Source: an uncultured Chloroflexia bacterium (lineage in GTDB: Bacteria; Chloroflexota; Dehalococcoidia; GIF9; UBA5629). From it: a stretch of DNA of 64,000 bases. How positions within the stretch are numbered: the first letter of the stretch is position 1; every line of letters begins with the position of its first letter. The stretch spans positions 23,649 to 87,648 of the forward strand of contig CAWJIA010000011.1 in the NCBI GenBank assembly GCA_963842805.1, read 5' to 3'. Shown in pieces: positions 4,782 through 49,200 of this stretch. The translations under genes and the position numbers were made by a program. The notes under the pieces were generated by a model. That model saw nothing but the letters and a program-made list of their open reading frames with translations, was not told the origin of the DNA and did no database searches.

Positions 4782-5159
4782 ATGCGCCGAGAGAAATTTG
4801 AGGACCTGGTTTTGGATGCCATTTCCAACATTCCGGAGGAATTCAAAGAACTCCTGGAAAATATCGATATAATCGTGGAAGACTGGCCCAGCAATAGCCA
4901 GATTAAAAGGTTGGGACTGAAAAACAAATACGAGCTTCTGGGTTTATACGAAGGAATTCCCCGAACCAGAAGGGACCATAGCTACAACCTGGCACTGCCA
5001 GATAAAATAACGATATTCCAAAAACCCCTGGAGGCAGACTGCTCCTCAGAAGAGGACTTAAAGCAGGAAATCATCAGGACAGTGAAGCACGAAATCGCCC
5101 ATTACTTTGGGCTTGACGATGACCGTCTTGAAGAAATAGAAAACGACGGTGATACTTAA
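4782..5159 (+). CDS. Small putative zinc metallopeptidase (HExxH, DUF1025-like)
   Basis: 125-aa ORF with HEIAHYFGLDDD motif near C-terminus. Confidence 0.55.
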   Translation: MRREKFEDLVLDAISNIPEEFKELLENIDIIVEDWPSNSQIKRLGLKNKYELLGLYEGIPRTRRDHSYNLALPDKITIFQKPLEADCSSEEDLKQEIIRTVKHEIAHYFGLDDDRLEEIENDGDT

Positions 5160-5241
5160 TTACTATTGATTTACATTTAATTTTAGAGTAGAGTATTACA
5201 AAGGTGACATGTGTGGTAAATATTTTGGAGGCTAATATTAC

Positions 5242-7005
5242 ATGAGAAGGTTGCTGATATCGTTACCGATCGCACTGTTGATATTGATGGCGATTATTAC
5301 CCCTCGTGCAGCTTTTGCTGAGAGTGTATTATCCAACGACCCTGGCTCATGCGGTTTTGAACGGTCAGTTTCAACTTCTGGATCATCGTATCCTTCATAT
5401 TTCGCAGCAGATAACACCACTTTGCCTGACGGCCTGGTCCTCAAGAAAGGTTCACCCTTTATAACACCCTCCGAAGTCAACAAAGGTGATGTAGTCACGA
5501 TAAAAGTTAGCGCCACTAATTCGGGTCAGCAACAGATCATTTACCCTCTCGCAGTCCAAGTCAACGGCAAAACAGGCACTTCACAGACGATCACACTGGA
5601 CCCGGGTCAGACCAATGATAATATTATATTTCAGATAAATGCCGATGATTCCGGCAATAATGCAGTCATAGTCGGCAATTTACAGGGGTTTTTTACGGTT
5701 AAAGATAGCGGGTCATTTCTGGATATGTTTCCTCCTTACCTCTGGGGATTCTTCGGAATCGTGCTCGGGGTGATTATTATGTTGATTGTTCTGATGGCAA
5801 CCAAACCTTCTAAGCGAAAACCGGGAGCGCCGGGTGAGCAGCTTAAAAAGGGCGCCAAGCAAAAAGGCAAACCGGGTAGACCAGGTATGGGAGATGCCCA
5901 GATGCCAGGGGTCCCGCAACGTCCGGGCATGGCTGGCATGCCGGAAGGGATGTTCATGAGCATGCAAACACCAGGCCAGCCGGGGATGCCTCAGGATATG
6001 TCTACACCGGGCATGCCTGGAATGCAGCAGCCGTTCCAGCAGCAACCGCAACCGGGTATGCAGCCACCATTCCAACAGCCAAACCAACCGGGTATGCAAC
6101 CTCCCTTTCAACCCGGTATGCAGCCATCCGGTATGAGGGGCTCTCCTCCTGGCGGACAACCTCCCATGCAGGGAATGCCTCCAGGGGTACAGCCGATGGG
6201 CCCGGGAATGCCCCCTCAAATGGGTGGCCAACCGGGAATGCCATTCGGGATGCAGCGGCCTCAGCCTGGAATGTCTCCTGGAGCGCCGCAGATGCCTCCT
6301 CCCGGCCCGCAATATATGCAATCGGGCCCGCCGACTATGACATCACCTATTCCGTCGCAGGGTATGCCTCCCGGTATGGGCCCATCAGCTCAATCAGGTA
6401 TGCAACCTCCTGCAGCCTCCGGAGCAGGACCGATGATTGTGCCCAAGTTTTCGGTTAGCAACCTCACTATTACACCAAACAAGGTCAAAGCGGGCGAGCC
6501 TGTTAATATAAGCATCATCGTCTCCAATAATGGGATGCAGACCGGCAAATACAGCGTTGTGCTGAGAATCGGTGGGGTCGTTGAAAACATCAGCGACCTT
6601 TCCCTGCCACCCGGCGCCAGTCAAACTGCCGGTTTCACGGTCGTTAAAGATGTTCCCGGCGATTACTATGCCGATATTGACGGCCTCGGCGGTTTTTTCA
6701 CAGCCATTCCCCTGGTACCGCCTTCATTCATTATCAGCAATTTCTCCATCGGCCCTGAACGTGTCAGGCAGGGACAACCGGTGATCGTCACAGCTTCAGT
6801 AACAAACGTGGGTGAGATCACAGGGAATCACACCCTAATTCTGCGTGTAAAGGGATTATCCGAGAGCCAGCAGGAAATTAACCTGGGTCCCGGCAAGATG
6901 CAGAATATCGAATTCCAGATCATAAAGGATACGCCGGGCTTTTATCCGGTAGCGCTGGAAAATTGGACCGGCAAATTTGTGGTAGAGATGGACTGGAACG
7001 GCTGA
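5242..7005 (+). CDS. Signal-peptide membrane protein: CARDB-like domain, one TM helix, ~230-aa Pro/Gly/Met/Gln low-complexity region, two C-terminal CARDB-like domains
   Basis: N-terminal signal peptide MRRLLISLPIALLILMAIITPRAAFA; TM LWGFFGIVLGVIIMLIVLMAT; degenerate PGMQPPFQQ repeats; C-terminal KAGEPVNISIIVSNNG... and RQGQPVIVTASVTNVG... CARDB-like modules. Confidence 0.6.
   Translation: MRRLLISLPIALLILMAIITPRAAFAESVLSNDPGSCGFERSVSTSGSSYPSYFAADNTTLPDGLVLKKGSPFITPSEVNKGDVVTIKVSATNSGQQQIIYPLAVQVNGKTGTSQTITLDPGQTNDNIIFQINADDSGNNAVIVGNLQGFFTVKDSGSFLDMFPPYLWGFFGIVLGVIIMLIVLMATKPSKRKPGAPGEQLKKGAKQKGKPGRPGMGDAQMPGVPQRPGMAGMPEGMFMSMQTPGQPGMPQDMSTPGMPGMQQPFQQQPQPGMQPPFQQPNQPGMQPPFQPGMQPSGMRGSPPGGQPPMQGMPPGVQPMGPGMPPQMGGQPGMPFGMQRPQPGMSPGAPQMPPPGPQYMQSGPPTMTSPIPSQGMPPGMGPSAQSGMQPPAASGAGPMIVPKFSVSNLTITPNKVKAGEPVNISIIVSNNGMQTGKYSVVLRIGGVVENISDLSLPPGASQTAGFTVVKDVPGDYYADIDGLGGFFTAIPLVPPSFIISNFSIGPERVRQGQPVIVTASVTNVGEITGNHTLILRVKGLSESQQEINLGPGKMQNIEFQIIKDTPGFYPVALENWTGKFVVEMDWNG
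6040..6130 (+). repeat. Imperfect ~30-33 bp tandem nucleotide repeats encoding QPGMQPPFQQ units
   Basis: caaccgggtatgcagccaccattccaacagcc / caaccgggtatgcaacctccctttcaacc / cggtatgcagccatcc seen directly in sequence. Confidence 0.6.
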
Positions 7006-11248: not shown

Positions 11249-11614
11249 ATGGCATTTAATTATTGTTGCGAGAACATGGTGGGGCCAGATCTTTTCTCGT
11301 TTATAAAAGAAAATGGTTTTACGGGATTGAAATTGAGACTTTTATTTTTCTGGGGGAAGCACCCTCATACTAAATTCGATCTGGATTGCATTGCACACTT
11401 TCTGGATATCACGCGTTATCACCTGCGTGACATCATCAAGGATTTAATCGATAAAGGAGTGATTAATGAACAATATTGCTCTAATGGAACGGCTCATTAC
11501 TCACTAAACCAGGAGAACGAAACAACCAAGTACATTGGTGAATTGGCCAGCCTCGATTGGAGCATCTTGAATAATATGCTTGGAACGATTGAAAGAGAAG
11601 CCCTTCCGGTATAA
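11249..11614 (+). CDS. Hypothetical small protein, possible winged-helix DNA-binding fold, first gene of mraZ cluster
   Basis: 121 aa with good RBS (aaggggaaaagga); segment FDLDCIAHFLDITRYHLRDIIKDLIDKGVINEQ...HYSL resembles wHTH; no assignable family. Confidence 0.45.
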   Translation: MAFNYCCENMVGPDLFSFIKENGFTGLKLRLLFFWGKHPHTKFDLDCIAHFLDITRYHLRDIIKDLIDKGVINEQYCSNGTAHYSLNQENETTKYIGELASLDWSILNNMLGTIEREALPV

Positions 11615-11637
11615 CAACTCCGTCAGGTTAGTTAATT

Positions 11638-12066
11638 ATGTTTGTTGGCGAATACGAATACAAGGTCGATAACAAGGGTCGTCTGCCTTTGCCACCCAAA
11701 TTCCGCAAAGACATTGATGATGGGCTTGTGCTTACCATGGTGGCGGATAACTGTATCACGGCCTACACCAGGGATGACTGGGCCAAGATGACCACCAACC
11801 AGGCCCCGACCGGGTTCCTCATGTCTGATAAGGCAAGGAAGATAAACCGTTTTATCTTCAGCAATGCCAACGAAGTCACGATAGATAATCAGGGCAGGAT
11901 ATCCCTGCCTTCAATGCTGAGGGAAAGATGTGGTATCTCCGACAGTGCCTCTATCGCCGGCGTAAACAACTATTTTGAAATTTGGAATCCGGAACACTGG
12001 AAGAAAGAAAGGATTTCCTCGGACGACGCAAGTCAAATAATGGACATTCTTGAGGAGAAGAAATGA
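11638..12066 (+). CDS. mraZ: Division/cell-wall cluster transcriptional regulator MraZ
   Basis: 142 aa; duplicated DxxGR motifs (VDNKGRLPLP and DNQGRISLP). Confidence 0.9.
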   Translation: MFVGEYEYKVDNKGRLPLPPKFRKDIDDGLVLTMVADNCITAYTRDDWAKMTTNQAPTGFLMSDKARKINRFIFSNANEVTIDNQGRISLPSMLRERCGISDSASIAGVNNYFEIWNPEHWKKERISSDDASQIMDILEEKK

Positions 12067-12998
12067 GCTTAACGTTAGAGAGAATGGTCCACACGCCGGT
12101 GCTGATCACAGAGGTCATTCAGGGGCTGGACGTGATGCCGGGGAAGCGATATGTCGACTGTACTTTAGGCGGTGGCGGCCATTCAACAGCCATACTGTCC
12201 AAATGCCAGCCCGGTGGTGAGTTGCTGGGTATAGACTCGGACCCTGAGGCCATTCGGATCGCACAACACAACCTCTATAACTATTTCGAAAGCACTATGA
12301 TCGTTAATGACAACTTCTATAACCTGGAGCAAATTTGCACGGAGACCCGTTTTATGCCGGTAGATGGTATTTTATTCGACCTGGGCCTTTCTTCCCTTCA
12401 GCTTTCCAGCGATGAACGTGGATTCAGTTTCCAGCGCAGCGGCCCGCTCGATATGAGGTTCAACCCCGATGAGCAGCTCACGGCTGCCGACATCGTCAAC
12501 AAAATGCCCGAGTCCAAGCTGGCCCAGCTCATACTTATCTACGGTGAGGAGTCTTACGCCAATCGGATAGCCAGCAATATCGTCAGGCACAGGCCGATAT
12601 CGGGTACGGCCGAACTGGCCGCCATCGTTTCCAGTTCAGTTGGCGACCGCTATACCAAGATTCATCCGGCTACCAGGACCTTTCAGGCCCTGCGCATAGC
12701 CGTCAACCGGGAACTGGATCACCTTACCTCCGCCCTCGACCAGAGCCTTAAATGCCTGGCCCCGGGGGGCAGGCTAGCGGTCATCAGCTACCATTCATTG
12801 GAAGACCGTATAGTCAAGAATTTCATGTTACGAGAAACCAGGTCCTGCATATGTCCCAGCAATATACCCGAATGCCGCTGCCATCACCAGCAGCAAATCA
12901 CCCTGATAAACAGGCATCCCATTACCCCGGCTGAAACCGAAATCGAAATAAACCCGCGCAGCAGGAGCGCCAAGCTCCGCATAGCGCAAAGATTATAA
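12063..12998 (+). CDS. rsmH: 16S rRNA (cytosine1402-N4)-methyltransferase
   Basis: HTPVLITEV...YVDCTLGGGGHS...FDLGLSS...GGRLAVISYHSLEDRIVK motifs; overlaps mraZ stop by 4 bp. Confidence 0.9.
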   Translation: MSLTLERMVHTPVLITEVIQGLDVMPGKRYVDCTLGGGGHSTAILSKCQPGGELLGIDSDPEAIRIAQHNLYNYFESTMIVNDNFYNLEQICTETRFMPVDGILFDLGLSSLQLSSDERGFSFQRSGPLDMRFNPDEQLTAADIVNKMPESKLAQLILIYGEESYANRIASNIVRHRPISGTAELAAIVSSSVGDRYTKIHPATRTFQALRIAVNRELDHLTSALDQSLKCLAPGGRLAVISYHSLEDRIVKNFMLRETRSCICPSNIPECRCHHQQQITLINRHPITPAETEIEINPRSRSAKLRIAQRL

Positions 12999-13222
12999 AA
13001 ATAGCAGGAGGCACGGAAAATGATACAAGCAAGCAGATTCGGCACCATTCTTAATAGGGATGGGAAACTCCTGGCAATATTCAGCGGCATGGTTTTTGAC
13101 GGCATCGTTTTCATCAGCCTGATAATCGCTATTGCCATACTTTACTTCTTATAGCGTGTATTAATTTACTCACCAGGAAATTTAGCAGTTAAGTATCACT
13201 AAATCGAAGGAGGCATGGATAA

Positions 13223-14449
13223 ATGACAAAAAGGTTAATCACCGGCATCGATGTAGGTACAACTAAGATTTGTACAATAGTTGCCACCCTTGATTCCGGC
13301 GGTGCCCTGCAGGTACTTGGGGTCGGCCAGGTACCTTCCCATGGTTTACACAAAGGCATGGTTGTCAACGTTGATGAAGCCAGAGATTCGGTTGCCGAAT
13401 CGGTCAAACGTGCTGAACAGGCCAGCGGTGTCAAGATCGAGTCAGCCTACATCGGCGTAACCGGCAGGCACATCAGTTCGGTCAATAGTCATGGCGTCGT
13501 GGCTATACCCCGAACCGACCGCCTTGTCAGGCAGGACGACCTGTCACGTGTTCTGTCATCTGCCAAGAACATCAACATCCCCGATGACAGAAAAATCCTT
13601 CACCAGATCCCCAGGGGTTACAGTCTGGACACCCAGGAAAAAATCAAGAACCCGGTCGGCATGCATGGGTTCAGGCTGGATGTCGAAACCCATATCATCA
13701 CCGCTTCCACTGCTTCTGTGCAGAACCTGGTTAAATGTGTTCGTAGCGTTGGTGTGGAAATCGACGACCTGGTGCTCGAACCACTGGCCAGCGGCGAGTC
13801 GGTACTTACGCCGGAAGAAAAAGAGATCGGCGTAATCATGGCAGATATCGGCGGAGGTACCACTGACATCGCCGTATTTAAGGACGGCAGTATTTATCAC
13901 ACCTCCATCATACCCGTGGCCGGCTACCAGTTCACAAGCGACCTGTCGATCGGTCTAGGTCTGCCCTTTGAAATCGCAGAAGCGATGAAGAAGAAGTACG
14001 GCAATGTTTACCCTGAGACGGGTCAGAAAGACGAGGGTTCCACCCTGACGGTGGAAGATGGACACAGCGTTTCCTACAAAGACCTTTGCAACATACTTCG
14101 GGACCGCATGGAAGAGCTGCTCAGGCTTATCTTACTGGAAATGCCGGATACCAGCTATGCATCGCTGGCCCCTGCCGGACTGGTAATGACCGGAGGTGGA
14201 TCCAAGATGAACGGCCTGGAAGCTCTCGCCCGCGGCACCATCCGCATCCCCACCAGGATAGGAGAACCAATGGGAGTCTATGGTATTACTGATGTGCTGC
14301 ATGACCCGGCCAACGCTACCGGCGTGGGTCTTCTCCTCTGGGCCATCAAGACCGGAGGAAAGCCCACATGGGAATCGAAGGGCGGCGACGCCAGAACCAG
14401 CCAGGTAAGCAACGTCATGGGCATGCTCAAGAAATTCTTTAGTGCCTGA
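13223..14449 (+). CDS. ftsA: Cell division protein FtsA
   Basis: 408 aa actin-fold protein: GIDVGTTKICTIVA, DIGGGTTDIAVF, MTGGGSKMNGL; immediately precedes ftsZ. Confidence 0.9.
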   Translation: MTKRLITGIDVGTTKICTIVATLDSGGALQVLGVGQVPSHGLHKGMVVNVDEARDSVAESVKRAEQASGVKIESAYIGVTGRHISSVNSHGVVAIPRTDRLVRQDDLSRVLSSAKNINIPDDRKILHQIPRGYSLDTQEKIKNPVGMHGFRLDVETHIITASTASVQNLVKCVRSVGVEIDDLVLEPLASGESVLTPEEKEIGVIMADIGGGTTDIAVFKDGSIYHTSIIPVAGYQFTSDLSIGLGLPFEIAEAMKKKYGNVYPETGQKDEGSTLTVEDGHSVSYKDLCNILRDRMEELLRLILLEMPDTSYASLAPAGLVMTGGGSKMNGLEALARGTIRIPTRIGEPMGVYGITDVLHDPANATGVGLLLWAIKTGGKPTWESKGGDARTSQVSNVMGMLKKFFSA

Positions 14450-14488
14450 TAATAAACATTTTTGAAATAGCAGGAGGTTTTAGAAAGT

Positions 14489-15601
14489 ATGTCGAAATCA
14501 ATGTTCTCAACAGCACCAGCTAAGATCAAAGCCATAGGCTGCGGCGGTGGCGGCTCAAATGCTATCACCCGCATGGTCCGCGAGGGGATCAAGGGCGTCG
14601 AATTCATCTGTATGAATACTGATGCGCAGGCATTAGCCCTGGCAGAGGTCCCGGTTCGCGTCCAACTCGGTGAAAAACTCACACGCGGGCTTGGCGCAGG
14701 CGGCGACCATAATGTCGGCAGGAAATCGGCCGAAGAAAGCCGTCAGGCGATCCAGGAAGTGGTATCCGGCGCTGACATGGTATTCATCACAGCAGGCATG
14801 GGTGGCGGCACCGGCACAGGCAGCATCCCTGTAGTGGCTGAAGTTGCCAGGTCATCCGGCGCTCTGACCATTGCCATCGTGACCAAACCGTTTGCCTTCG
14901 AAGGCGCAAGGCGCATGAAGGTAGCCGAAGAGGGTATCCTGCAGCTTTGCGACAAGGTAGACACCCTAGTCATCATCCCCAACGACCGCATAATCGAGCT
15001 CTGCGACAACAAAACCACAGTCGACAACGCTTTCCGGTTGGCTGATGATGTGTTGAAGCTGGGCGTGCAGGCTATTGCTGAAGTGGTAACCGTCCCTGGC
15101 CTTATCAACCTGGATTTCGCTGACATCAGGGCCATCATGAAGAACTCCGGACCGGCATGGATGTCTGTTGGCCACGGCAAGGGTTCCAACAGGGCGGTAG
15201 AGGCAGCCAAGGCGGCCCTGGCCAGCCCGATGCTCGACGTTTCTATCAGCGGCGCCAAAGGCGTACTATTCAACGTGACCGGCGGCAGCAGCCTGACGCT
15301 TTTCGAATGCAACGAGGCGGCTGACGTAATTGCCCAATCAGTCGATCCCGACGCCAACATCATATTCGGCGTGGTCTTCAATTCTCAGCTTGAGGATGAA
15401 GTCCAGATCACTATCATAGCTACCGGGTTCACCGCACAGTATGGTTCCGGGGTTCCAACCGAGGTGGAACTGCGCAGACTGTTGCGTGGAGCAACCGAAG
15501 ACAGCCTTGATGTTCCTTCATTCCTGAGAAGAGGATCGCGTTATCCCAATGCCCAATCGGGGGCACCCCGCCAGTCAGATTTTAGCAGAATGCCTCGCTA
15601 A
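14489..15601 (+). CDS. ftsZ: Cell division GTPase FtsZ
   Basis: [19 protein letters not shown] tubulin signature, ATGFT; 370 aa. Confidence 0.95.
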
Positions 15602-18921: not shown

Positions 18922-20343
18922 ATGGATGCCACTGAAAATCGCTGTTCTCTTGCATTCAAGCAGATAGCTAAAGTAGTCAACAGTGATTTACCTTTAAAGA
19001 AAATAATGGGACTGATTGCCGCCAGCGCAGCGCGAGCTTTGCAAGCTTCAGGCTGTGCTATTATGCTGCTCAACCCCCAGCGTGAATATCTGGATATCAT
19101 CGGCGCTTTCGGATTGAGTGACATCTACTTACGCAAAGGAGCCTTGAACGCTCGTAAAAGCTACCCTGAGATCCTGGACGGCAAGACTGTCGCTGTTGAA
19201 GATATTATCGTCGATAAAAGGACTCAGTTCCCCGAACAAGCAGCTAAGGAAAATCTGAAGTCGCTGCTGGGTGCGCCTATTTTGCAGAAAGAGGAGGTAA
19301 TAGGGGAGATCAGGATTTACACCCATGAAAAAAAGCATTTCAAACCTCATGAGAAAGACTTCATTGCCACCGTGGCTAATATCATTGCGGTGACAGTGGG
19401 AAAAAACGAATTGTACCAGTACTTAAATACACATCATGAGACCAATGTCACACAGCAGAAGAAACTCACCAGTTTCTCCCACCTTCCTTTGAAGCCGGTG
19501 CGTCCGACCAGTTTCAGCCACCCCAGTGAAGAAGAGTTTGCCAGGTTGCTGGATTTTTACCAGGTGGAATGGCTTTACGAGCCACGTTCATTTCCATTGT
19601 CCTGGGAAGCTAACAGAATCACCGAGATGTTCACGCCGGATTTCTATCTGCCTGAGATAGATTTATATATCGAATTGACAACTTCCAGACAAAGCCTTAT
19701 CACAGAGAAGAACCATAAGCTGCGCCAGCTCAAAGAACTGTATCCGGATGTCAACGTAAAACTGCTCAATAAAGCCGATTACCTAAAGCTTTTTGTAAAA
19801 TACGATTTTATACCCCTGGGCGAAAACAAGATGAACGGCGTGCAAAAATACCTGTTCAATAAAACGCAGCTCGACAGGCGCGTAAAGTCGCTGGCCAAGC
19901 AGATATCGAAAGATTATCATGGGAAGGACCTTATTCTTATTGGCATTCTTAAAGGGGTCATATGTTTTATGTCGGACCTGATGCAGAATATATCCATACC
20001 CCTTGAATGCGATTTTATGGCGATATCCACTCCCCAGGGCAAATCCGATTCGCTAATTAAAATAACTAAAGACCTGGATATTGATATCAGAGGCAAGCAC
20101 GTATTGATGGTGGAAGATATAATCGATACGGGAATGACCTTGAACTACGTATTAAACTACCTTGCGACACGCAAGCCGGCGAGTTTAAAAGTGTGCACAC
20201 TTTTAGATAAGAGGGTTAGGCGCTTAATCGATGTACATCTCGACTATATCGGATTCGAGATACCGGACGAGTTTGTCGTGGGCTACGGCCTGGATGTCAG
20301 GGGGAAATACCGCAACTTACCCTTCATAGCGATTTTGGAATAA
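18922..20343 (+). CDS. hpt: Three-module fusion: N-terminal GAF domain, central PD-(D/E)xK-like (DUF559/Vsr-like) module, C-terminal hypoxanthine phosphoribosyltransferase
   Basis: C-terminal 175 aa match HPRT (LILIGILKGVICFMSDL..., VLMVEDIIDTGMTL PRPP motif, VVGYGLDVRGKYRNLPFI); N-terminus GAF-like (KIMGLIAASAARALQASGCAIMLL...IGEIRIYTHE); middle region EEEFARLLDFYQVEWLYEP...PDFYLPEIDLYIELT. Confidence 0.7.
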   Translation: MDATENRCSLAFKQIAKVVNSDLPLKKIMGLIAASAARALQASGCAIMLLNPQREYLDIIGAFGLSDIYLRKGALNARKSYPEILDGKTVAVEDIIVDKRTQFPEQAAKENLKSLLGAPILQKEEVIGEIRIYTHEKKHFKPHEKDFIATVANIIAVTVGKNELYQYLNTHHETNVTQQKKLTSFSHLPLKPVRPTSFSHPSEEEFARLLDFYQVEWLYEPRSFPLSWEANRITEMFTPDFYLPEIDLYIELTTSRQSLITEKNHKLRQLKELYPDVNVKLLNKADYLKLFVKYDFIPLGENKMNGVQKYLFNKTQLDRRVKSLAKQISKDYHGKDLILIGILKGVICFMSDLMQNISIPLECDFMAISTPQGKSDSLIKITKDLDIDIRGKHVLMVEDIIDTGMTLNYVLNYLATRKPASLKVCTLLDKRVRRLIDVHLDYIGFEIPDEFVVGYGLDVRGKYRNLPFIAILE

Positions 20344-47670: not shown

Positions 47671-49200
47671 TTAATCCAGATAGTCTTTGAGTTTACGGCT
47701 GCGGCTGGGATGACGCAATTTACGCAGAGCTTTGGCTTCGATCTGACGGATGCGTTCCCTGGTCACGTTGAATTCCTGACCCACTTCCTCCAGCGTCCTG
47801 GCCCTGTCGTCTTCCAGGCCGAAGCGCAATAAAATGACCCGCCTTTCCCTGTCAGTCAATTCACCAAGCAATTCATTTATCTGCGTCCGGAGCAATCCAA
47901 TGGTTGCGACCTCGCTGGGAGGCAAGCCTGTCTTGTCTTCTATAAAATCCCCCAAATGGCTGTCTTCTTCTTCTCCGACAGGCGTCTCCAGCGATAAAGG
48001 GGTCCTGGTTAATTTCAGGATTTCCGTTACCTTTTCCACGGAAAGCTCCATGGCCAGGGCAATCTCATCTATATTGGGCTCACCGCCGCCCTCTTGGCTT
48101 AACTGCCTGCGGGTCCTCAACAACCTGTTGATATTTTCCACCATATGAACTGGAATCCTGATAGTGCGTGACTGGTCGGCGAGCGCCCGTGTTACGGCCT
48201 GCCGTATCCACCATGTAGCATAAGTGCTGAATTTAAAACCCCGCCTGTATTCGAATTTATCAACGGCCCGCACAAGACCTATATTCCCTTCCTGTATCAG
48301 ATCCAGAATCGGCATATGTTGCTGGCTGTATTTCTTGGCGATACTGACTACCAGCCTCAGGTTGGCCTCAATAAGGTGCCTTGACGATTTATCCGCATCC
48401 CGTTTTACACTGCTGGAAAATTGTATGAACTGGTCTTTAAGGAGTTGCAACTCCGTCAGCAATTTTTCATCCACCGGGTCTTTAAGGAGCAGCTCAACCT
48501 GGTCCCACGACGTGCGGCTCCCGATGATGTCATAGATTTTCAGGGGCAACAGACGGCTGTATATGGATATATCGGCAATATCACGCCAGACTTCCATGAA
48601 CGTCTTTCCGCAACTTGCGCATATTGCTTCAACAAAGGATATTTCTACTACGCCGTCAATGGCAGTCCTCAATTCCGGTTTGAGAATCGTTTGCTTGAAA
48701 TTGCTTCCACACTTCATTCCCAGACTTTTGTATAAAGCCAGAACTATCGGGTAGGCGGAAACCAGCTTTCGCAAGCTGGCCAGGATTACGCTGATCTCCC
48801 GGTCATATTGTTCCGGATTGGCCATATAGAACTTTTCCAGCCTTTCCAGGTAACGGCCGTCCTCAACCTTGCCTGCTAGAGAGCGCTCCTCCTTTGCAGT
48901 AAGAAGGGCCACTTTCCCGATCTCCCGCAGATACAAATGTATCGGGTCATCATAGAATTCGGGTACCTCAGCCGCTATGGCGGATGGCAACGGCAGTTTG
49001 TTATCCGGCCGTAGCGCCGCCGGCTCCTCCAACCCATTCTCAATCGATACCAGGTCTTCCCAGATAGAGGAGGTGCGGGCGAATTCATCTACTTCCTTTT
49101 CATCGAAAACATCCAGTACGACGTCAAGGCCCACCGATGACTGCTGGCCCGGCGTTGAAATGAATGGGCTCTTAAGCCCAATCTCTTTACTATTTATCAA
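47671..49200 (-). CDS. rpoD: Primary RNA polymerase sigma factor (sigma-70 family) with large non-conserved insert
   Basis: region 1.2 ([21 protein letters not shown]), region 2 ([16 protein letters not shown]...[12 protein letters not shown]), region 3 and 4.2 ([12 protein letters not shown]...[28 protein letters not shown]). Confidence 0.9.

Follow-up and report, generated by a model that had tools for sequence, protein, structure and literature searches.

A conserved single-pass membrane protein of uncultured Dehalococcoidia with CARDB-type domains on both sides of its membrane helix and a long, disordered Pro/Gly/Gln/Met-rich linker

The stretch of DNA analyzed here, called the window below, comprises 64,000 nucleotides from an uncultured Chloroflexia bacterium that is placed by GTDB in the Dehalococcoidia (GIF9; UBA5629; assembly GCA_963842805.1, contig CAWJIA010000011.1, positions 23,649 to 87,648 of the forward strand). 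At positions 5242 to 7005 of the plus strand it contains an open reading frame (ORF) with an ATG start and 587 codons plus a stop. The product is a conserved single-pass membrane protein of uncultured Dehalococcoidia. It has CARDB-type domains on both sides of one transmembrane (TM) helix, and a low-complexity chain separates the helix from the C-terminal pair of domains. A Shine-Dalgarno-like GGAGG, read directly in the sequence at 5227 to 5231 (+), lies 10 nt 5' of the ATG and supports 5242 as the start, and homologs of 590 to 640 amino acids align over 100% of the 587-residue protein. An earlier annotation made from the letters alone, referred to here as the sequence-only reading, had listed a signal peptide, an N-terminal CARDB-like domain, a single TM helix, a tract rich in Pro, Gly, Met and Gln, and two further CARDB-like domains. 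This anatomy is borne out by hydropathy, by Pfam, by profile comparison with hhalign and by a whole-protein AlphaFold2 (AF2) model built on an alignment of 61 sequences.

All segments of the protein are encoded on the plus strand. The Sec-type signal peptide (residues 1 to 26; 5242 to 5319) is composed of MRR, a hydrophobic core and an AFA site followed by E. It is recognized by hydropathy, in the homologs and in the AF2 model, which places a helix at residues 2 to 22. A hydropathy scan of the whole protein finds exactly two hydrophobic segments, namely this one (MRRLLISLPIALLILMAIITPRAAFA, followed by E) and residues 166 to 188, and no third. In a comparison of 71 homologs, nearly all begin with M[KR][KR], a hydrophobic core and an AxA-like site, where the signal peptide is probably cleaved. 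A disordered and presumably extracellular lead-in follows (residues 27 to 60; 5320 to 5421; predicted local distance difference test score, pLDDT, 35 to 46). In the alignment it ends in a conserved ADN-x-T / LPxGL motif, and its NTT58 sequon is present in 38 of 48 homologs. The first beta-sandwich, a CARDB-like domain that would form an ectodomain, occupies residues 61 to 155 (5422 to 5706). The TM helix (residues 165 to 188; 5734 to 5805) is entered through a conserved FPPYLW motif, of which W168 is invariant; hydropathy peaks at 2.79 in this segment, and the AF2 helix extends from 165 to 187. A basic juxtamembrane patch (residues 188 to 215; 5803 to 5886) with the sequence KPSKRKPG...KKGAKQKGKPGRPG is evident from its charge and from the homologs, and within the close clade its KP..KK and GK.G elements reach 80% conservation or more. 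The nearly uncharged linker covers residues 216 to 400 (5887 to 6441). The C-terminal CARDB domain 1 (residues 401 to 492; 6442 to 6717) and domain 2 (residues 493 to 587; 6718 to 7002) form a tandem. It closes with the tail G[KR]FVVEM[DE]W, in which F579, V580, E582, M583, and W585 are invariant.

The folded domains are related to one another. The Pfam model CARDB (PF07705) matches residues 401 to 587 in two stretches, the better of which is 401 to 477, with an E-value of 3.8e-9 and 37.1 bits against a cut-off of 22.7. AF2 models this region as two beta-sandwiches (residues 401 to 583) at a pLDDT of about 95, and the pair modeled alone reaches 94.6. The Ig-like (immunoglobulin-like) beta-sandwich is similar to that of solved CARDB domains. 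The N-terminal domain is below the Pfam threshold, with no match at an E-value of 0.01 or lower. In hhalign it aligns with the profile of the C-terminal domains at 96.6% probability, with an E-value of 5.9e-10 and 36% identity over 81 columns, and AF2 gives it eight strands at a pLDDT of about 95 in the same strand order as the C-terminal domains. All three folded domains are homologous, and the proposal of CARDB-like domains on both sides of the TM helix holds by both the profile and the strand order. When the whole protein was compared by sequence with solved structures, only two marginal matches came up (E about 0.08 to 0.09), and no NCBIfam model came near any cut-off. Foldseek matches are generic tandem Ig and fibronectin type III (FnIII) proteins. 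They indicate that the fold is also present in bacterial proteins that we take to be cytoplasmic, for example AlkC, and no specific function follows from them.

In composition the linker stands apart from the other long ORFs of the window. Residues 191 to 400 contain 26% Pro, 19% Gly, 16% Gln, and 14% Met, and these four residues make up 88% of the best 100-residue segment of the tract, compared with at most 32% in the other long ORFs. Residues 216 to 400 hold 6 charged residues in 185, are 45% Pro plus Gly, and include 30 Met, often 3 to 8 residues apart. AF2 predicts no secondary structure over residues 190 to 400 (pLDDT 43 to 56). The proposal that the tract is a flexible spacer fits this lack of predicted structure, the high Pro and Gly content and the scarcity of charge. 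Its presence was correctly described earlier; the length of 230 residues was not, and the tract measures about 185 to 210 depending on whether the basic patch is counted. Imperfect QPGMQPPFQQ repeats are found at the protein level, where PGM occurs 11 times and QPGM six times. At the DNA level the sole tandem repeat detected in the linker by Tandem Repeats Finder is a unit of 36 bp in 2.1 copies (6022 to 6098, +) that encodes MQPPFQQPNQPG-type units. Synonymous codons for Pro, Gly, and Gln are mixed in the tract. Five close relatives, 92 to 95% identical in the C-terminal domains, differ from it by in-frame indels of 1 to 9 residues or more and retain recognizable motifs. Mixed codons together with indels that keep the frame suggest that the tract is shaped by selection on the protein and not by DNA slippage. 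Across 50 long-linker sequences, islands at least 80% conserved are KP..KK, GK.G, RP...GMP.G, DM...GM.GMQ, and QPG.PFG.Q.P.

The homologs show how the linker varies. The comparison covers 71 database homologs, 63 genome loci recovered by scanning one genome per species with two exact peptide patterns (one of them the tail motif G[KR]FVVEM[DE]W), and 154 full-length members. Among the last, the stretch between TM helix and tandem has a bimodal length distribution, with either 50 to 75 or 200 to 275 amino acids. The short linkers average 27% Pro, 13% Ala, 13% Thr, and 5% Met, and the long ones 26% Pro, 21% Gln, 14% Gly, and 11% Met. The window protein falls in the long mode, with 207 amino acids by this measure. 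By this comparison, the P/G/Q/M tract is a Pro-rich linker that has expanded in one clade. Non-conservation of the tract in homologs, which the sequence-only reading had named as grounds for doubt, is thus found in part: a Pro-rich linker is always present, and its P/G/Q/M-rich form of more than 200 residues is confined to one clade, the other having 50 to 75 residues rich in Pro, Ala, and Thr. The bimodal length and composition argue against a function specific to Met and for a spacer of tunable length.

The same domain layout is shared by the 71 database homologs and the 63 genome loci. All of the species-level loci and all named proteins come from metagenome-assembled genomes (MAGs) of uncultured Dehalococcoidia or Chloroflexota. 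None is from a cultured host, and the exact-pattern scan could miss a divergent orthologue in Dehalococcoides or Dehalogenimonas. Two of the 63 loci lie in records labeled "chromosome" (L009, 2.46 Mb; L061, 1.76 Mb). The gene is apparently single-copy, and its chromosomal position is the same in every locus recovered. Members are named "hypothetical protein" in the sources or carry evidently spurious names ("TatA," "FliL," "DUF58," "cupredoxin-like") that convey no functional information, and literature searches on Dehalococcoidia CARDB proteins and on Dehalococcoides FtsZ, S-layer, and cell division turned up nothing on this family.

Conservation is distributed very unevenly along the protein. 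Mean identity to the close-clade loci is 84% for the C-terminal tandem and 58% for the ectodomain. In the same comparison it is 86% for LeuRS, 81% each for RplS (ribosomal protein L19), MraZ, and RsmH, 78% for TrmD, 75% for Def, and 68% for PriA. Alignment-based values for the close clade are 81 to 87% for the tandem and 46% for the ectodomain. For C-terminal domain 1 taken separately, identity is 87% within the close clade and 62% in the distant one. Members have zero, one, or two copies of the ectodomain. A fast-evolving, dispensable outer domain joined to a slow inner module is the pattern that would be expected of a surface part and a part in contact with conserved cytoplasmic components.

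The order of hydrophobic and charged segments suggests the orientation of the protein. Over the 71 homologs, the mean net charge of the 15 residues flanking the TM helix is +4.4 after it and -0.45 before it. In five members (P0146, P0150, P0156, P0071, and P0119) the ectodomain region is only about 20 to 45 amino acids long, and the signal peptide and TM helix are still kept, an arrangement that is needed only for an orientation with the C-terminus inside (C-in). From the positive-inside charge bias, the lack of a third hydrophobic segment and these ectodomain-poor members, we infer that the first domain most likely lies outside the cell and that everything from the basic patch through the tract to the C-terminal tandem most likely lies in the cytoplasm. 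The idea that the tract spans a cell wall or envelope finds no support in these features. At the extreme C-terminus there is no sorting signal of the LPXTG, PGF-CTERM, or PEP-CTERM type; the FPPYLW-TM-KRK segment is similar in form but internal, at residues 163 to 195 of 587. Among NCBIfam sorting-signal models, only PACE-CTERM-PROT was reported, at 9.8 bits against a cut-off of 110. Three sister proteins recovered in the exhaustive profile search described below (P0187, P0191, and P0250) carry one TM helix near the N-terminus, with an uncharged or acidic flank on its N-terminal side and many Lys on its C-terminal side. Beyond the helix these proteins have a short linker rich in Pro and Ala and three to five CARDB repeats that end in FVVEMA-like tails. 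They are apparently further membrane-tethered CARDB proteins that would face the cytoplasm, and their layout agrees with a C-in topology of the 587-residue protein.

We put the probability at roughly 55% that the protein is of type I (N-out, C-in), crosses the membrane once and works there as a flexible tether or adaptor. The Sec signal peptide would export the short disordered segment and one fast-evolving Ig-like domain of the CARDB type to the cell surface. The helix would act as a stop-transfer sequence and, with the Lys/Arg patch, hold the remainder in the cytoplasm, the patch probably resting against acidic lipid head groups. The almost uncharged, disordered chain of about 185 residues would then be a long entropic leash, with a contour length of about 70 nm and, by a polymer-scaling estimate, an expected end-to-end distance of about 10 nm. 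At the end of the leash, the tandem of two Ig-like domains that closes in GKFVVEMDW, conserved like housekeeping proteins, may engage a conserved partner in the cytoplasm, at the membrane's inner face.

Several observations weigh against a cytoplasmic tether. CARDB domains are overwhelmingly extracellular. An exhaustive search of 1.84 billion representative proteins with the tandem profile gave 10,222 matches, and most of them are large multi-repeat proteins with a signal peptide, a series of CARDB domains and a C-terminal TM helix with an Arg-rich tail or a PGF-CTERM-like end, i.e., of surface architecture; one match also has a subtilase domain. In the distant clade the short linkers are rich in Pro, Thr, and Ala, as extracellular stalks often are too. 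The tandem contains six N-x-S/T sequons against 1.6 expected from shuffles, and five, at residues 407 (NLT), 422, 449 (NIS), 500, and 574 (NWT), are each present in 47 to 54 of 60 homologs. The first sequon of each C-terminal domain is found at a homologous position (SNLTITP and SNFSIGP), and the sequons may simply follow from the polar residues that alternate along edge strands of the CARDB fold; if not, they would be a sign of N-glycosylation and of a location outside the cell. Structural searches with the tandem give only generic Ig/FnIII folds and indicate no partner. Additionally, the C-in topology is a prediction from sequence rules.

Known membrane proteins provide two kinds of comparison, one by layout and the other by domain family. 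ZipA anchors FtsZ to the membrane in Escherichia coli and other Gammaproteobacteria. The E. coli protein has 6 residues outside, a TM helix at 7 to 28, a charged region at 29 to 85, an unstructured P/Q-rich region at 86 to 185 and a globular FtsZ-binding domain at 186 to 328 (PMC6904479). The window protein has the same order of modules, with the TM helix, the patch at 188 to 215, the unstructured Pro/Gln-rich linker and a C-terminal globular part. It also appears to share a single TM helix that leaves most of the chain on the cytoplasmic side, a likeness taken here from the positive-inside rule only (n = 71). The two proteins differ in other respects. ZipA has no signal peptide and only its 6 outer residues, whereas the window protein has a signal peptide and its family usually one Ig-like ectodomain. 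ZipA ends in the ZipA_C fold, while the tandem here is an all-beta CARDB sandwich pair without a ZipA_C match in Pfam or NCBIfam. The window protein has a linker of twice the length, rich in Gly and Met as well, and no sequence homology to ZipA was detected. By analogy, the protein would be a ZipA-type tether in layout and not a member of the ZipA family. In the second comparison, the first 195 residues (signal peptide, CARDB domain, TM helix, and KRK) match the architecture of small CARDB/COG1361 surface proteins of archaea and Chloroflexota (PF07705; e.g., PDB 3idu, Pyrococcus PF1109). Those proteins end just past the TM helix and a basic tail, whereas here the helix lies at 166 to 188 of 587 and about 400 more residues follow with the linker and two CARDB domains. 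Unlike typical CARDB surface repeats, the tandem is far more conserved and ends in the family-specific GKFVVEMDW. The layout of anchor, spacer and globular domain also has precedents of the opposite orientation. TonB, RodZ, and the RsgI anti-sigma factors have a membrane anchor, a Pro-rich spacer and a terminal globular domain, with the N-terminus in the cytoplasm and the spacer and domain outside the cytoplasmic membrane. The charge distribution suggests the reverse for the window protein, and TonB_C, RodZ, and RsgI domains are absent from it in Pfam and NCBIfam.

The gene lies in a conserved chromosomal neighborhood. It is convergent with def-priA-rplS-trmD, beyond which lies a division cluster of the order orf121-mraZ-rsmH-(44-residue ORF)-ftsA-ftsZ, both in the window and in related loci that are long enough. 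In every locus examined, the distance to this cluster is about 4 kb, with only the opposite-strand def-priA-rplS-trmD in between. The upstream neighbor depends on the clade: members with long linkers have Zincin_1/LeuRS there, and those with short linkers comEA-comEC. In the window, a small metallopeptidase-like protein of the Zincin_1 family (PF06262) is encoded at 4782 to 5159 (+), 82 bp upstream on the same strand, and is adjacent in the long-linker clade only. Across the loci compared there is no conserved co-transcribed operon partner, as the upstream neighbor is clade-dependent and the downstream def is convergent, and promoter and terminator scans gave background levels only.

The division cluster occupies 11249 to 15601 (+) in the window and is reduced: no mur genes, ftsW, or ftsI are found between rsmH and ftsA. 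A 44-residue ORF with a hydrophobic C-terminus (13020 to 13154) takes the usual position of ftsL. After it come ftsA (13223 to 14449) and ftsZ (14489 to 15601), whose product has the C-terminal peptide LDVPSFLRR. The cluster order is repeated in related loci of sufficient length, with ftsA/ftsZ seen only in L001-L004. Directly upstream of mraZ, orf121 (121 amino acids; 11249 to 11614, +) is present in every related locus that reaches that far, at 27 to 89% identity, and has no Pfam match. Further along the window, a 473-residue ORF at 18922 to 20343 (+) has, by eye, an N-terminal GAF-like sensor region and a C-terminal hypoxanthine phosphoribosyltransferase-like region. The cumulative GC skew has its minimum near 50 to 52 kb, where gene orientation switches; an rpoD-like gene on the minus strand at 47671 to 49200 is followed by plus-strand genes. 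No dnaA-like ORF was seen near this minimum among ORFs of at least 150 amino acids, and no tRNA gene or Rfam family was found at threshold in the whole 64 kb.

Four other explanations of the 587-residue protein have to be weighed against a cytoplasmic tether. One is that the ORF is an artefact, in which a frameshift or a chimeric assembly has fused a small surface protein (signal peptide, CARDB, TM helix, KRK) to a downstream CARDB gene across the low-complexity stretch. The N-terminal 195 residues do resemble a complete small CARDB surface protein, and many database entries are C-terminal fragments of 190 to 230 amino acids that start inside the tract. The fragments begin at internal Met codons, lie mostly on contigs of 1 to 5 kb and in a few cases of 11 to 67 kb, and look like truncated gene calls. 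On every contig of sufficient length the frame runs through without a break. The assemblies are independent, stem from dozens of samples and include the closed or near-closed MAG chromosomes L009 and L061, and every tract indel is in frame. No assembly error in the tract, which the sequence-only reading had flagged as a danger, was found, given the single 36-bp repeat, the mixed codons and the identical layout of homologs and loci, and the artefact is effectively refuted. A second explanation holds that the tract binds Cu(I)/Ag(I) or serves as a sensor or sink for methionine oxidation, with the CARDB domains as passive scaffolds. It could appeal to the 30 closely spaced Met and to the name "cupredoxin-like copper-binding protein" that the Joint Genome Institute (JGI) gives to some homologs. 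The tract has neither His nor Cys, Met-richness is not conserved between the clades, and it is the tandem and not the tract that is best conserved; the JGI name probably derives from the beta-sandwich fold only. We regard a metal or redox role as very unlikely. The third explanation, an extracellular stalk, develops the sequence-only reading. It places the tract and the C-terminal pair outside, so that the tract spans the S-layer or envelope space of a cell lacking peptidoglycan and the pair is part of the surface layer. The surface location of most CARDB relatives, the enriched and conserved sequons and the P/T/A-rich linkers of distant homologs all speak for it, as does the name "COG1361 family protein" of a homolog in one NCBI record. 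Such a stalk needs a third membrane crossing, for which no hydrophobic segment is present, or the translocation of about 10 Lys/Arg within 28 residues. It also sits poorly with a charge bias that is consistent over the homologs and with ectodomain-less members that retain the signal peptide and TM helix. A tandem conserved like a ribosomal protein beside a fast-evolving ectodomain is the opposite of what surface-exposed repeats would be expected to show. An external stalk thus appears unlikely.

The fourth explanation accepts a cytoplasmic tandem and gives it a specific partner. The tandem would bind FtsZ or FtsA, and the protein would be a functional ZipA analogue in wall-less Dehalococcoidia, where its ectodomain might connect the Z-ring with the S-layer. 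The ZipA-like order of modules, the constant distance of about 4 kb from the division cluster and the lack of peptidoglycan genes between rsmH and ftsA are in its favor. The gene is neither adjacent to the cluster nor in the same operon, and the region is collinear across genomes, so that the proximity may reflect shared ancestry alone. The C-terminal beta-sandwich is not the FtsZ-binding domain of ZipA. Additionally, FtsA of the window ends in ...VMGMLKKFFSA, by eye a putative membrane-targeting helix of its own, and if this is correct an extra anchor would not be needed. We consider a divisome anchor improbable. Equally speculative is a wider proposal, in which the surface Ig-like domain, an elastomer-like chain and a cytoplasmic tandem docked on core machinery would make up a trans-membrane coupling device of wall-less Dehalococcoidia. 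That machinery would most attractively be the FtsZ/FtsA ring encoded about 4 kb away, and the protein would be a non-homologous ZipA analogue or a sub-membrane cortical scaffold.

Dehalococcoidia are reported to lack peptidoglycan. For such cells, a type I tether would be a candidate link between the surface and conserved cytoplasmic machinery, since the protein is found at the same position in 63 species-level genomes, is conserved at the level of ribosomal proteins in its tandem, spans the membrane and is built from a domain type that is normally extracellular. The domain type itself is known, and the cytoplasmic extension beyond the classical surface architecture would be the unusual part of the arrangement, in a family found here only in uncultured Dehalococcoidia. 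If the C-terminus is external instead, the conserved sequons would suggest that Dehalococcoidia have N-glycosylated surface proteins, which would also be new. If the tether reading is true, the protein would offer a clear instance, in bacteria, of one membrane with homologous Ig-like domains on its two faces, and the three- to four-fold lengthening of the linker in one lineage would serve as a natural experiment in tether length.

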